Positions 1,745 to 46,360 of a stretch of 64,000 bases of DNA are shown piece after piece (within the stretch, counting starts at the first letter, position 1; each line of letters opens with the position of its first letter). This DNA is from Octopus vulgaris. Taxonomy: Eukaryota. The stretch is from NCBI GenBank assembly GCA_951406725.2, contig OX597817.1:134354001-134418000 (forward strand), in the 5' to 3' direction. Below the pieces are notes generated by a model. That model was not told the DNA's origin. It saw only the letters and a list, made by a program, of their open reading frames with translations, and ran no database searches. A program made the translations under genes and the position numbers.

Positions 1745-2193
1745 TAATGTTTAAAGGATAAAAATCATTAACTATTTATACCAAGTGGTTAGCGCGGAAA
1801 TAAAACCTCATAGGTACATTCTATAAATAATTATAACAAGGCTTGGTTTGTGCCTCACCACGCACTGAAAAATAGACGTCAAGAGACACTATTACCACCA
1901 TAATTTCTCCCAGAGAAACACACTATATAAAAGGCTAGCAAAAGAAAGAAGATGAATGAAAACTTCAGTTAATCGCGTACATGATCGTGTTTCGGGCTTA
2001 AAGTAATAAAAAACATTACCTATTGCCCGAAACACGATCGTGTACGCGGTTCACCGAAGTTTTCATTCATTTTCTTTCTTTTGCTAGTCTTTTATGTAGC
2101 GTTTCTCTCGGAGAACTTATGATGGTAATAGTGTCTCTTGACGTCTATTTTTCAGAGCGTGGTGAGGCACAAACCAAGCCCTTGTTATAATTA
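1745..2193. mobile_element. Fold-back element with half hammerhead at the loop (PLE pLTR-like)
   Basis: Inverted arms 1828-1997 and 2025-2193 (~90% identical), 27-nt loop, extra left extension 1745-1827; flanked by (TAA)n and (TA)n. Confidence 0.75.
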
Positions 2194-2204
2194 TATATAT
2201 ATAT

Positions 2205-2400
2205 AGTAGATCCCAAAAAACGAAGAACGAACAAAAAAGAAAAGCAACAACGCGAGTACGTGGTACATGCAAAGTATTAGCAGACGCTCAGTGAAGAAAA
2301 GAAAGGTGGTATAACGCTTAGAGCAGAGCTCTTCTTCAGGAACAGAGAAAAGTCCAATAGAAAAGGAAGGTGGAGGGAAAAATCGCCAACGATTATACGT
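2205..2400 (-). mobile_element. ~200-bp TA-embedded cassette with decayed hammerhead
   Basis: Minus strand reads CTGAAGA-A-GAGC-TCT-GCTC-TAAG-CGTTA (2311-2339); same layout as 7898-8096 and 15471-15682, but GAAA has mutated. Confidence 0.6.
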
Positions 2401-2552
2401 ATATATTGTTGTTGAAGGATCCTGGCCACACACACGTGATCAAAAGTGGATTGACGCATTTCAATAAAATAAAGAAACCAGTTGACAGTCGGGAGTTGAC
2501 AACGAGAAGATGACAGTGTTGATCTTTCGTATCGGATTACTGTGTTTAAAAC

Positions 2553-2628
2553 GTACTGGTGCCATTCATTCGACTGAAAATTCTTCTAGGCGGTGACCCA
2601 TCATGGCCGCAATCTAATGACTGAAACA
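2553..2628 (+). mobile_element. SINE family A, 3' end (split copy)
   Basis: Ends CATGGCCGCAATCTAATGACTGAAACA, the family A tail. Confidence 0.7.
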
Positions 2629-2682
2629 ATATATATATATATATATATATATATATATATATATATATATATATATATATAT

Positions 2683-3010
2683 AAATAAAACTTCTAATAC
2701 TTTTTGATAGTTTATAAAAAAATTTTTTTTTTAAATATAAAAATATAAAAAAAATATTAAAATATTAAAAAATATAAATAAAAAAATAATTAAATAAAAT
2801 AATAATAAAAATATATATATATTTATAATTTATAAGTTTAAATTATTAATTTAAATATTTTTTTAAAAATTTTAACTTTAATTTAAATATTTTAATTGGA
2901 TTTTTATATTTTATATTTTTTATACATTTTTATATCAATTTTATTTCTATGTATTGGCTTATGATTTTCACTGTTTGATTTGCCTAATAGTGGTTTTATC
3001 TCTAATTTAA
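2683..3010 (-). repeat. Extremely AT-rich dispersed repeat
   Basis: Both ends match 13721-13912 in inverse orientation (TTAAATTAGAGATAAAACCACTA...CAAATCAAACAGTGAAAA and AACTATCAAAAAGTATTA). Confidence 0.75.
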
Positions 3011-42269: not shown

Positions 42270-42792
42270 ATAAATTCTTTATTAATCATGGGGCCGACAT
42301 AAAAGGTACGAAGCAGTTAAACATAGAGGTGTTAGGACGAATACACAGACGCATACACAAACTAAATAAAGTAATAACAAAAATTTAGATTATGAGCATA
42401 TGTGGGAATGATAACCTCCAAGGGCTGCACCTGGAAATTCCATTCTGCCCACTTAGTCAATCAATCATTAATTCCCCTACAATCTAAAATCACATGCTTA
42501 GAATACGCCCGTTTACTAAGACCGTGCTCGTTATTCTCATGCACCATTCAACGAATTTGATGGGCGGCAACACTTCCCTCTCTACGAGCAAAGCCTGAAA
42601 TTGTTGAATGCACGGTGCCAAGTAGGCCACTTTTGGTAAGCAGAACTTTCCAAAGAGGAAACCAAATATCTACAGCCTTTTCAATTTCGTTTACCACGCA
42701 ACATCTTTCGCCATTTCCGCCAGACAGATAAATACTGCCTTGCCTTCCCGACCAAATTTTGGCGGCGGAGCGACCTTCACAATGGACCCAGC
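42270..42792 (-). mobile_element. Probable Tx1/L1 LINE 3' end
   Basis: Minus translation FICLAEMAKDVAW..VEREVL resembles a Tx1 ORF2 C-terminus; AATAAA followed by (TTA)n. Confidence 0.5.
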
Positions 42793-43689
42793 TAACACAC
42801 ACACACACACACACAGATATTAAACGTCTTTAAAACAGTAACAGTATTTTTGATCGCATTCACATCAACTATGCATAATAATTATGCAAATGATGTTTGC
42901 AAACAATTATACTACAACAAAGGACTCAGGTGGACATTTCTGCTTTTTGATTCCATGTACACCCACAAGAACATATTGGTAATAATAAGGTTGTATATTT
43001 GCATATTTATTCTTCAAACGTCTAGGCAATATATATTAGTCGCCGCAGATTTTCTCAATGGAAAAAAATATTTTATGACGATTGGGTTTTCAATACATTC
43101 GGCTCATGGAAGCAGTGGATTCTGAGACACCGGTGTTTTGACATGTGTCTTGTCAGCTACAAGTGCCCCGGACCATTGAGTTTAGCCAAGCAGCTTGGTT
43201 TTTGTCAAGACTTTCAACGAACAATGTTTAAGAAATGGAGGTTTTATACCTTATTGAGCAGGTATTATAGCTTTATTTGTCAGGACATTTTTTGCCGACA
43301 ATTCTCTTGAACGATAGTGTCGATTGAGTTACTTCCTCACTTCGTATTAGCGTCTTTAAACCAAAACAATTTTGATCGCGTGACCTGGCATATAATTTGA
43401 AATACAACCTTATAACGACTAATAAGTCTTCAAATTTTTCCAAGAAAAGGAAAGGAGATAAAATAAAAAGTGCAAGCATTCTCTGGCGCTAGAGAAATGC
43501 TTAAATGTAATTACATGAAATATTTCATTTAACTTCATTCTATTTCATTTCCTTTTCTGGGAAAACTTTGAAGACATTACTACTATACGCCTATATAATT
43601 AAAGGACAATTGCTTCGTTTCTTCTGACCAATCGTATCAATATACTATTCTGTACACCACCGAAAACATTATTTATCTATCCTGTTAAT

Positions 43690-45780
43690 TGGGCAGGCAG
43701 CCTGAGCTTGCCACTTACAAAAGTTGCTTGAGCACACTTATCAAGGCTAAAATCCATCCCGATGCCGTTGTTGAACTCTTTCACAATCGTTAACAGCCCA
43801 ACTCACTCTTCGTAATTTCTAGCAAATAAATTCAAATCGTCCATATAAAACAGGGGATATACTATAATATTATATTTCTTGAACTCATACCTGGTGTTAC
43901 TCAGTTCGTTTGAGAGTGGGATCAGTACAATGCAAAAGAGTAAAGAGGGGAGGGTGTCACTTTGAAAGATGCCTCGTTTGATATCGATGTTATCAGATTG
44001 GCTCATGCCATTACTATGGTTTAGAAGCAGACATGTATGCCAATTGGCTATGCTATCTTGTAAGAATTTGGAGGCGACAGGAGAGATCTTATTCATCTCT
44101 AGGGCCTTGACTAGTCGATTATGTGGGACACTATGAAACACTTACCTGTAGTCTAACCATGCCATACTCAGCTTCTTGTTGCTCCGCCAATTCTCTGCAA
44201 TCATTTTATCTATGAGTAATTGATCTTTGCATCCATAAGAATTCATTTTAAAATCGTTTTGTGTTTGTGGAAGGATAGAATTCCGTTCATAGGAAGTGTA
44301 TATTCTTTTAGTTAGTTTCGATGTGAGGATCTTGTGGGTGGTGTTGAGACATGTTATTGGTCAGTAGTTCTTTCGATTTTTCGTGTCTTCAGATTTTGGT
44401 AGCAGGCATGTTGTACCTTCGGTCAGCCAGGCTGATATTTGCTCTGAGTTCTGGAGTTACGTCATCAGTTACGGATGCAGCAAAATTCTTGTGTAATTCT
44501 GTCAAACAATTCATCCAGAAGTTAAGGATCCAGTCCAGTCCTGGGATTCTTCATTTATGAGACTTTATAAGGAGACACCTTAGCTCTTCTACCCCTCTTG
44601 CCTCCCGTTTCCGCTCTTTGACTTCATTCAGTCTCACTTTCTCACATTCTACCCAGTGAGCTTCAGCATTATATTCTTTTTTGTTGCTTTTTCCATCTGT
44701 CTTGAATACGTTTTTTTGTCGATAAAATTTGATTATTTGTCATACCTTCTGAGCCGCTGGTCTTTCAGTTGTATTCGTCATTTCACTAATTTCTTGGTTG
44801 CCGGGAGGTTTATAAAATTTTTGATTTATATTTTTGATTGATTTTTCTAACTTGTTTCGTCTTAACATTTACTCCTGTTGCAAGTTCATCGAGAACTGAT
44901 ACATCCACCCGCAAAAATTCTCTGTCTTTTTGTATTACTACATTCCAATTAGCAGACCTATTGACATGGTTGGTTCTTTTCCGTATCGTTGTCACGACGC
45001 CTAGTTGGGCAGTTACAACTTCAGCAGTGGAATAGATGAGGTTCTTTAAGGTTGTTAGGTCATTTGCCTTATTACTTAAGATCTGTCTAAGACCAATATT
45101 ATATACCATGATTATGTTATTTTTTGGTGCTGTTTGAGAGCTTTGGTAGCGGTTCTCTATTGATCATATCAGTAAATTCTGTTTTGCTGAGTTCTCTCAT
45201 AATATCTTTTTTTGCTACTGTGATCTTCTCTTTATTATTCTGTGTCATATCTATTCTGGTGTTCTTGAGGTAGGTCTACTTTCTCCTCTTTTTCCGCATA
45301 TTTGTTCTTTGCTATTCTTTCTTCAGCTTCCTCGTTGGGGTGTAGTGCTCGTAAACTGTTGAGTTCTGTGCATCTGTTACCTATTTCATCTGCATTGCTG
45401 CTGTTTTCATTTGGCCTAGCATGAAATATGTGTGTCCTAATTTGGTTAATTTCAGCGTCAGTTAACCTTTTATTCTTAGTGATGTCTCTACCTACATTAC
45501 TTAATTTATCTGCATCTATATATCTGCGTACTTCGTTGCCCATGATGTGTATGTTTCTACAATGAGGTTATTGGTTGGGTTTAGTTGGGCTGTGTAGAAA
45601 GCTTTCAACACATCTCTGTAATCCTCTCTAGTCCATTTTATGCGTTTTGCTTTAAGAGGTGTATATGATGGTGTCACTACTGCTCTACGGTGGTAAGGGT
45701 TACCCTGATTCTGGCTACCTGGTAGTTCGTTTTGGGGGAGTTCCAGCAGCAAACTTTTCGACCGAAGTCTGGTAACACGG
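43690..45780 (-). mobile_element. R4/Dong LINE 5' portion (N-terminal domain plus reverse transcriptase), decayed
   Basis: RIKWTREDY N-terminal motif; DQLLIDK, AWLDY, SVPH, KRGIFQSD and LFYMDDL RT motifs; 5' end abuts (TAA)n. Confidence 0.9.
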
Positions 45781-45826
45781 TCATTATTATTATTATTATT
45801 ATTATTATTATTATTATTATTATTTA

Positions 45827-45970
45827 TCGTCCGTCATTACGTTCTGAGTCGACTTTACCTTTTTATCCTTTCGGGGTCGATGAAATAAGTACCAGTTGAG
45901 CACTGGGGTCGATCTAATTGGTTAGTCCCCCTCCCCCAAGAATTTCAGACCTTGTGCCTATAATAGAAAA
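45827..45970 (+). mobile_element. SINE family B fragment in (TTA)n
   Basis: CCTTTCGGGGTCGAT...GCACTGGGGTCGAT core. Confidence 0.8.
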
Positions 45971-45979
45971 TATTATTAT

Positions 45980-46360
45980 TATTTGCCATCTCAATATGGC
46001 TAACCACTAAGGGTGGATGTTACTGTAGCTTGTAGCTCCAGGAGAACATCCTCTCCATCTGGCTATTGACAGCCCTATCGGTATCTGCAAAGGGAGGTCA
46101 TCCTTCCTTTGTCAACCTAAGTGACACGCACGGACTGCAGTTTCTGGGTATTAACCCGTCATCAACGCACGACAATCACCGGCTTTCGATGGAAGGGTCC
46201 CAATGCAAATATTTATATCCTTTTTCCAGTGACTTTTCGTCTCGTGTTCTCCTGAGGCTACAAGCTACAGTAACATCCACCCTTAGTGGTTATCCATATT
46301 GAGATGGCAAATATACTTCACATTGTCGTGCAGTTACTGTCTATACCTCGTTCAGAGATT
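45980..46360. mobile_element. Fold-back element with hammerhead in the loop
   Basis: 69-bp arms 45980-46048 and 46245-46313 (3 mismatches), right extension 46314-46360, (TTA)n on both sides. Confidence 0.85.
46127..46171 (-). ncRNA. Type I hammerhead ribozyme (C3U variant or decay)
   Basis: CGTGCG-TTGATGA-CGGGT(TAAT)ACCCA-GAAA-CTGCAG-TC-CGTGCG; palindromic stem III ACTGCAGT, GUC triplet. Confidence 0.72.

Follow-up and report, generated by a model that had tools for sequence, protein, structure and literature searches.

The window, by which we mean the whole 64,000-nt stretch of Octopus vulgaris DNA that was analysed, contains four fold-back elements (E1 to E4) and two relatives of these, E2b and E5. 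The features are as follows, in order along the window.

1749..1827, minus strand: E1 tail, 79 nt.
1828..1997, minus strand: E1 left arm, whose inner end is a hammerhead 3' half (end of stem II, GAAA, palindromic stem III, GUA) that reads outward.
1998..2024, no strand assigned: E1 spacer, 27 nt, forming the interior of a stem II hairpin that is in register with both arms, and folding better as the minus strand.
2025..2193, plus strand: E1 right arm (91% identity with its left counterpart), with a half-hammerhead at 2025-2044; it adjoins (TA)n.
8130..8183, minus strand: E2 tail, 54 nt, extending the inverted arm; E2b has a counterpart of its outer 24 nt.
8184..8318, minus strand: E2 inverted arm, 135 nt.
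8319..8481, plus strand: E2 direct copy, a 28-nt spacer and an arm (8347-8481; arm identity 135/135), without a hammerhead of its own; it adjoins (TA)n.
20968..21068, minus strand: E3 tail, 101 nt, on the inverted arm.
21069..21157, minus strand: E3 inverted arm.
21158..21435, plus strand: E3 direct copy, a hammerhead-bearing spacer of 188 nt and an arm (21346-21435; arm identity 89/90); it adjoins (TA)n.
21195..21273, plus strand: E3 type I hammerhead motif (motif core 21202-21266), with a 7-bp stem I, a long stem II, a minimal stem III and a GUA site.
22324..22478, plus strand: E2b, a 78% relative of E2 in which 24 nt of the E2 extension are joined to one direct arm; no hairpin.
23349..23638, plus strand: E5, a relative of E4 and E2b flanked by (TA)n on one side and (TC)n(TA)n on the other; no inverted arm.
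23432-23477, plus strand: E5 hammerhead motif, complete in the motif scan.
45980..46244, minus strand: E4 direct copy, consisting of a leader with a TATA-like box, a hammerhead, and an arm (45980-46048; arm identity 66/69, spacer 196 nt).
46127..46171, minus strand: E4 type I hammerhead motif (motif core 46165-46133), with a palindromic stem III and a GUC site.
46245..46313, plus strand: E4 inverted arm, 69 nt.
46314..46360, plus strand: E4 tail, 46-47 nt, extending the inverted arm and leading into (TTA)n.

The four hairpins that an earlier note had placed at 1828, 8184, 21069 and 45980 are well above chance. They are the top four among 12 distinct inverted pairs spanning less than 2 kb in the window, with scores of 453, 370, 163 and 112 bits, against 48 bits for the top local inverted match in 20 block-shuffled windows. 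The asymmetric design attributed to them is also present in 4/4 cases: one arm touches a microsatellite (0 nt), and for the other the gap to a microsatellite is 85 (E1; 79 if an imperfect trinucleotide run is counted as microsatellite), 54 (E2), 101 (E3) or 46 (E4) nts. Of the positions outside microsatellites, only 1.25% lie within 4 nts of one on a given side. The direct copy of E4 ends within a short interspersed repeat, in its (ATT)n tail. No target-site duplications are callable for the hairpins, their flanks being microsatellites.

The same note had described the four sequences as unrelated, and here our comparison disagrees. The E2-E4 similarity exceeds all 1000 shuffles, and E1 and E3 compared as whole units exceed 1000/1000. 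By sequence similarity, the six insertions within 64 kb are linked into two homology groups, group A (E2, E4, E2b and E5) and group B (E1 and E3), with no significant homology between the groups in any pair. Profile searches of the window find no further copy of either group at E<0.1. Within group A, the direct copy of E2 is homologous to the part of E4 downstream of the hammerhead. The units have homologous outer end points, 149-169 nts downstream of the site of hammerhead cleavage. In each hairpin the two outer ends correspond to the 3' ends of one unit, one arm stopping at a proximal point and the other continuing 46-101 nts further into the tail. The inner ends are a different matter. The inverted part measures 135 nts in E2, 69 in E4, at most 24 in E2b and none in E5, where 6/6 tests for an inverted tail at the start are not significant; in group B it measures 170 nts in E1 and 89 in E3. 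Fixed 3' ends thus go with variable inner ends and inversion points, in a comparison that covers relatives of 60-80% identity, and at that distance the variation in inversion points for which a test had been proposed is found in the window. The four members of group A have four layouts, so their structure is not uniform. Identity is 100% between the two arms of E2 but 78% between E2 and E2b, which implies that the arms were regenerated or homogenised and not inherited from the origin of the family.

The extension is element sequence in group A, as judged from alignments among E2, E4 and E2b. The E2 tail matches the start of E2b at 20/24 positions, and apart from the tail itself neither strand of the window has a better match. 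The E2 and E4 tails align in the same direction at a level reached by 1/3000 shuffles when the alignment is end-free and includes 20 nts of E4 flank (59/1000 without the flank). The tails of E1 and E3 compared alone are not significantly homologous (215/3000 shuffles). The inverted copies of E2, E3 and E4 carry the tail, and it is absent from the ribozyme-side direct copies, those with the spacer. Simple fold-back copying alone is therefore insufficient for these three, and a second priming event or later trimming is needed.

The putative ribozymes of E3, E4 and E5 are calls of our own motif scan, predicted from sequence. The window has three strict hammerhead motifs, all within these elements, against 0.02 per shuffle; by type I tally, E3, E4 and E5 have one each, E1 has a half-motif and E2 has none. 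A further hammerhead-like match at 8796-8722 (minus strand) is weak and at chance level (0.05 per shuffle), and we discarded it. Three local Rfam scans at E<=10 returned no hammerhead family and missed all three predicted ribozymes; in the whole-window Rfam scan, the 150 of 326 matches listed are all miRNA models on microsatellites, below gathering score. The proposal that two elements carry a whole hammerhead is not confirmed: type I motifs do occur in the E3 and E4 spacers, but the E4 motif deviates, C3 being replaced by U and stem II being mismatched at its base, and Rfam is negative.

In E3 and E4 the extended arm is upstream of and inverted relative to the predicted ribozyme, as had been proposed, and E2, with its orientation taken from homology, agrees with both. 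The further claim that E1 is consistent with this polarity fails, since the half-hammerhead is present in both arms and either polarity fits, with folding leaning to the opposite one. The E1 spacer folds at -12.4 kcal/mol as the minus strand (z -3.63) and at -7.9 as the plus strand (z -1.89); if the minus strand is the sense strand, the extension would be downstream, on the direct copy. Spacer-only homology favours neither strand (1289 and 2679 of 5000). The polarity rule is thus weaker than claimed: 3/3 orientable elements agree, two of them being relatives, and the chance of three agreeing is 0.25. Recombination between arms could later flip a spacer and blur the polarity.

Among 150 of 153 ORFs near the six elements, Pfam finds no RT or GIY-YIG coding sequence; the scan took ORFs within 1.8 kb of the elements and ten regions of the 316 other filtered ORFs. 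Two weak matches below cut-off (Chromo_PTM and Dicty_REP) were taken as chance. Protein searches with the E5 and E2b frames give none at E<=1. An E1 frame matches one 451-aa protein, in seven repeated stretches at 38% identity, and the match is probably compositional. Neither the scanned ORFs of the window nor the protein searches yield an RT or endonuclease partner for E1-E5, as is to be expected of copies this short, and a 25-nt stretch of E2 has 0 exact matches in bacterial and archaeal genomes.

We read the hairpins as retroposed, Penelope-like, pLTR-type insertions and not as TIR DNA transposons, with a probability of about 0.88. In each of E1-E4, two 5'-truncated copies of a short repeat, mostly one with a hammerhead, stand head to head in a microsatellite; the repeats are likely pLTR ends, and the extension likely corresponds to the known Penelope tail. 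Fixed outer ends combined with varying inversion points fit retrotransposition and do not fit MITEs. The earlier suggestion of a common integration mechanism other than that of TIR transposons holds in this respect, with the element-borne tail and the palindromic stem III, a trait of PLE hammerheads (PMC4209133), pointing the same way; simple fold-back priming does not suffice by itself for E2, E3 and E4.

The inverted truncated pLTR, the one-sided tail and the microsatellite targeting have all been published (PMC3846280, PMC8557442). The EN-containing PLEs (Penelope/Poseidon, Neptune, Nematis and Hydra; same sources) resemble these elements in the head-to-head inverted truncated copy (4/4 here), the tail at one end only, a type I hammerhead near the 3' end, an AT-rich or microsatellite target with no discernible TSD, and a unit size of about 200-290 nts with a TATA-like box. 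The E1 half-hammerheads, reading outward, match head-to-head inverted copies. The copies here differ in having no ORF and in their tails of 46-101 nts, longer than the published 30-40 nts, which counts against our reading. The Poseidon of Anolis carolinensis in vitro (PMC11167929) likewise has two 3' end points downstream of the hammerhead and prefers ATT, comparable to E4 in (ATT)n and to AT-rich targets in general; its two-endpoint region is the start of the ORF, while here we find no conserved frame or protein relative. Dispersed PLE-type hammerhead repeats (PMC4209133) are also short, with a palindromic helix III, and are taken as truncated PLEs. They include opposite-strand pairs 100-700 bp apart, as in E1 with its two half-motifs on opposite strands, unlike E3 and E4, which have a single motif inside the spacer, and E2, which has none. 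Non-LTR retrozymes (bioRxiv 10.64898/2026.07.22.740005) are likewise non-coding, with type I HHRs, a similar unit size and a link to PLE pLTRs, but they need head-to-tail tandem units each with an HHR, and here the motifs are single with no direct repeat of a whole unit. Naiad PLEs (PMC8557442), reported from Octopus species, share the (TA)n targeting, inverted copies and tails; they have an N-terminal endonuclease and are without a canonical HHR, unlike E3 and E5 with their canonical-type motifs, and four short motifs of our elements have 0 matches in the supplement of that paper.

Given this class, we lean slightly towards a joining step with two primers. A Penelope-type RT-endonuclease acting in trans would nick the (TA)n or (ATT)n target on both strands. 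Of the two nicked 3' ends, one would prime at a proximal RNA start and the other at a distal one; the two cDNAs would halt at different places, join via short complementarity (in E1, 4 bp at the base of stem II), and each would template the second strand of the other. Arms would be identical at birth and decay later, to the present 100 (E2), 99 (E3), 96 (E4) and 91% (E1). On AT-rich DNA, the purified protein of Poseidon nicks both strands and extends them; it begins at two sites on the RNA, and the stretch between these is the tail (PMC11167929).

Alternatively, the second arm of a Penelope-type element may arise by self-priming, the idea of the earlier note and already published (PMC3846280, PMC8557442), with the antisense strand folding back at a palindrome or hairpin and staggered endonuclease cuts leaving a tail on one side. 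We regard this as possible but unlikely. E1 suits it: its junction coincides exactly with the base of its stem II hairpin, and if E1 is minus-sense, then tail, arm and spacer form one continuous strand; an 8-nt palindrome also opens the direct arm of E3. The spacer ends of E2 and E4, however, are not self-complementary in register, and in E2, E3 and E4 the tail is missing from the would-be template, so that trimming would be needed each time at the homologous proximal point. As to two-primer joining, E1 sits awkwardly with it, being unorientable or opposite, with a junction in register with a hairpin.

A single inversion in a master copy, with the whole fold-back RNA then copied by a PLE enzyme, would make a fixed non-autonomous family. 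E2b has the outer left end of E2 and could have lost the left arm and spacer at a 2-nt overlap, and only distant relatives were compared, but the perfect E2 arms despite 22% divergence from E2b and the four layouts of group A, one without inversion, make such a family improbable. It is very improbable that the hairpins are MITEs or fold-back DNA transposons with long TIRs and TA targeting, the extension being host flank. The arms are long and near-perfect, the targets are TA-rich, and the mariner of the window (34099-35392) also lies within microsatellites; Tc1/mariner elements and MITEs share the inverted arms and TA context. They have symmetric fixed ends, no tail and no ribozyme, unlike E1-E4, where 4/4 ends are asymmetric, the extension recurs in a relative (group A), relatives lack one arm or have other arm lengths, and the spacing between hammerhead and 3' end is fixed. 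The mariner serves as a control, with symmetric TIRs of 37 bp and a match to transposase. Being microsatellite-flanked on both sides, the mariner also indicates that microsatellite adjacency alone is not diagnostic. Finally, it is just as improbable that the inversions arose once the elements were in place, through template switching during replication or repair close to fragile (TA)n tracts. Although every hairpin adjoins long microsatellites, such switching would not halt at a homologous 3' point and would not supply a tail absent from the direct copy, and no comparable fold-back was found among the many other microsatellite-flanked repeats of the window.

The layout of E1-E4 is already known, and the finding is real but largely ordinary. 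For annotation, it matters that such elements resemble MITEs yet probably derive from pLTR fragments by retroposition. The formation of inverted repeats by PLEs and their choice of microsatellites have both been described as unresolved (PMC8557442). If the tail-side bias, which four elements cannot show, holds genome-wide, abundant short copies whose hammerhead marks the strand internally would lend themselves well to work on this question.

More speculatively, and we think doubtfully, the long tails would be a decayed second copy of the element's hammerhead (the E1 spacer repeat, the E4 stem I repeat) defining the distal start site, the tail sitting preferentially on the shorter inverted copy (E2, E3, E4 and E2b) and marking two ordered priming events, and the short elements would be a genome-wide record of how Penelope-type integration ends. 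If so, thousands of such copies would let sequence alone test two-primer against fold-back integration. That tails pair with or repeat the ribozyme is a post hoc idea with mixed tests across E1, E3 and E4, which we set aside as a lead only. The tests give 1808/2000 shuffles for E3 and 14/2000 for E4; for E1 they give 36/2000 against the whole body, 120/2000 in a further test and 2/5000 against the spacer, which the outer 27 nts of the E1 tail directly repeat at 23/27 positions.

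The four hairpins E1-E4, described earlier as sharing one asymmetric design, are real structures. A self-comparison of the window gives 12 distinct inverted pairs spanning less than 2 kb, of which E1, E2, E3 and E4 rank as the top four (453, 370, 163 and 112 bits, respectively), versus 48 bits for the top inverted match in 20 block-shuffled windows. The hairpins, the shorter pairs and the transposon that served as a control for the layout are:

1828-2193: hairpin E1, arms of 170 nt with 91% identity, spacer of 27 nt
8184-8481: hairpin E2, arms identical at 135/135 positions, spacer of 28 nt
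21069-21435: hairpin E3, arms identical at 89/90 positions, spacer of 188 nt
45980-46313: hairpin E4, arms identical at 66/69 positions, spacer of 196 nt
43420-43582, 46909-47137 and 40830-40923: shorter inverted pairs (arms 31-49 nt, 84-92% identity) without the microsatellite-and-tail layout; the last stands after an imperfect (AAT)n tail
34099-35392, minus strand: Mariner-type DNA transposon between microsatellites; TIRs of 37 bp, transposase (Pfam Transposase_1) broken

In all four hairpins one arm contacts a microsatellite (chance at a random position, given the side, 1.25%), and the opposite arm stands 85 (E1), 54 (E2), 101 (E3) or 46 nt (E4) away from one, leaving a one-sided extension, or tail. 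None of the five other inverted pairs measured in the window has this asymmetric layout. The mariner, with symmetric ends, contacts microsatellites at both sides, so adjacency alone cannot tell retrotransposons from DNA transposons; asymmetry does.

A motif scan with the type I hammerhead ribozyme (HHR) core, admitting C3U by a rule set after E4 had been seen, finds three strict motifs in the window versus 0.02 per shuffle (200 shuffles):

21202-21266, plus strand: HHR motif in E3
46165-46133, minus strand: HHR motif in E4, with C3 replaced by U and a mismatched pair at the stem II base
23438-23471, plus strand: HHR motif in E5 (23349-23638), an element absent from the earlier note

The E5 motif is the cleanest, with a 6-bp stem I with extension, a 4-bp stem II, a 10-nt palindromic stem III and GUC. 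E1 retains only the 3' half of an HHR, present in both arms. E1, E4 and E5 have a palindromic stem III and E3 a minimal one, which agrees with the palindromic or minimal stem III described for hammerheads of Penelope-like elements (PLEs) in passages of PMC4209133. The two HHRs reported as whole, in E3 and E4, each have a strict motif, but that of E4 is imperfect, and three local Rfam scans of the motif-bearing elements gave no hammerhead family. Minimum-energy folds of the motifs are not unusual versus shuffles (z of -1.25, -0.77 and 0.05).

The sequences of the hairpins, thought to be unrelated, are not. We made 26 pairwise tests, each against 1000 shuffles, including E2b (22324-22478, plus strand), a 78% relative of E2. 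On the same strand, the pairs E2-E2b, E2-E4, E2b-E4, E4-E5 and E2b-E5 each score above every one of the 1000 shuffles, unlike E2-E5 (92 and 77/1000). For E1-E3, the minus form gives 1/1000 and the plus form 71/1000; with tails added these become 0 and 5/1000, and the minus form exceeds all 588 real-window controls. No cross-group pair is significant, so the elements form two homology groups, A (E2, E2b, E4, E5) and, less firmly, B (E1, E3).

Outer arm ends are homologous, lying 149 (E1), 169 (E3), 153 (E4) and 166 nt (E5) past the cleavage site of the HHR motif. Inversion points vary among relatives, with inverted parts of 135 (E2), 69 (E4), at most 24 (E2b) and 0 nt (E5) in group A, and 170 (E1) and 89 nt (E3) in group B. 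E5 has microsatellites on both sides, no inverted arm and a TATA-like box, and its start roughly corresponds by homology to that of the E4 direct copy (the ribozyme-strand unit).

In group A, sequence matches show that the extension belongs to the element. The 5' end of E2b matches the E2 extension at 20/24 nt, its best non-self match within the window; these 24 nt are fused to a single arm with a 2-nt overlap at the joint, making E2b either a very short inversion or a hairpin that later lost an arm. The E2 and E4 extensions align outward (1/3000 shuffles when 20 nt of E4 flank are added, 59/1000 without them); those of E1 and E3 alone show no significant homology (215/3000). The E1 spacer (1998-2024) is repeated directly at the outer end of its extension (1751-1776, 23/27), and 46322-46331 in the E4 tail exactly repeats the 10 nt immediately 5' of its HHR core, with further loose similarity (14/2000 shuffles, post hoc).

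Compared with E4, the E2 spacer aligns in the plus direction (0/5000 shuffles versus 1329/5000 for the other), which makes E2 plus-sense and places its extension, as in E3 and E4, on the inverted arm (the head-to-head partner of the direct copy). All three orientable elements agree with the polarity proposed in the earlier note, as does E2b if it is an independent insertion, but three cases do not establish a fixed rule: three agree by chance with probability 0.25, and two of them, E2 and E4, are related to each other. E1, described there as consistent, does not count in favor, its half-HHR layout being compatible with either strand; spacer-only homology gave no preference, and stem II folding favors minus (-12.4 versus -7.9 kcal/mol; 0 versus 12/200 shuffles), which would put its extension on the direct copy, the opposite side.

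E1-E4 appear to work like inverted, tailed pseudo-LTR (pLTR) insertions of PLEs, sharing their layout and structural traits, a class assignment based on structure, with no coding partner found nearby: 150 of the 153 ORFs near the elements gave no RT or GIY-YIG match, and protein searches with element frames gave no informative relative. The hairpin finding is mostly a known signature. Passages of PMC8557442 describe an inverted 5'-truncated copy often adjoining the 5' end, a tail at either end, often one only, and a microsatellite bias that obscures TSDs; a 3'-terminal tail on one inverted pLTR (part of PMC3846280), dispersed and opposite-strand HHR motifs as truncated PLEs (part of PMC4209133), and inverted pLTRs and 3' extensions as curation traits (part of PMC8969392) are also reported. 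Beyond this layout are tails longer than the published 30-40 bp (PMC8557442, in part) and a possible tail-side bias, each on very few cases. Neither such a bias nor these families was found in the PLE literature searched, older subscription papers, Repbase and Dfam lying outside it; passages of PMC13282606 count Octopus vulgaris Penelope families and leave ribozymes unmentioned. Non-LTR retrozymes (preprint 10.64898/2026.07.22.740005) are defined by tandem head-to-tail units that each carry an HHR, an arrangement not seen in these elements.

Each of these hairpins has two outward-facing 3' ends, one proximal and one distal, with its two truncated 5' ends joined in the interior. According to passages of PMC11167929, AT-rich DNA is nicked and extended on both strands by purified Poseidon protein, which initiates at two RNA sites; the interval between them is the genomic tail. 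Each nicked strand could prime one cDNA, a different RNA start site serving each, and short complementarity would let the ends of the two cDNAs join. Such joining would leave a tail on one copy and a partner without one, as in E2, E3 and E4, and arms identical at birth; E2 arms are 100% identical, though E2 and E2b are 22% divergent. Self-priming, proposed for head-to-head repeats (part of PMC3846280), with staggered endonuclease resolution (also part of PMC8557442) is the main rival. It accords with the E1 junction, which lies in the register of the stem II hairpin, but E2, E3 and E4 would each have to be trimmed back to that one proximal point. Poorer fits are a MITE, a hairpin family of fixed structure and rearrangement after insertion. 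Of the common integration mechanism suggested earlier, the argument against TIR DNA transposons is retained, and fold-back priming survives as a rival.

The window (35% G+C) has the look of invertebrate DNA and is rich in microsatellites and decayed transposons, including:

5686-5917, 16170-16589, 31828-32231, 40035-40809, 45848-45983 and 52448-52843: abundant short interspersed repeat, partial tandems, (ATT)n-type tails
62365-63168: decayed Tc1/mariner-like piece, long imperfect inverted ends (~72%)
49077-49478: decayed Tc1/mariner-like piece, Mos1-type HTH match at 49077
~43800-45780, minus strand: broken LINE, weak RVT_1 match
61133-61896, minus strand: LINE remnant, RVT_1 match at 61576-61896
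~27250-28560, plus strand: LINE remnant, frames Tx1/L1-like by eye and without a Pfam match

The short repeat, the commonest of the window, presumably resembles octopus SINEs. The LINE at ~43800-45780, which we take to resemble Dong/R4, begins next to an (ATT)n run that adjoins the short repeat whose tail received E4. A very long TA/TG microsatellite tract (~54800-60670) holds three copies of a 72-nt unique segment (55894, 58166 and 60597; ~2.3-2.4 kb apart, 96-99% identity), either a tandem of higher order or a duplication in the assembly.
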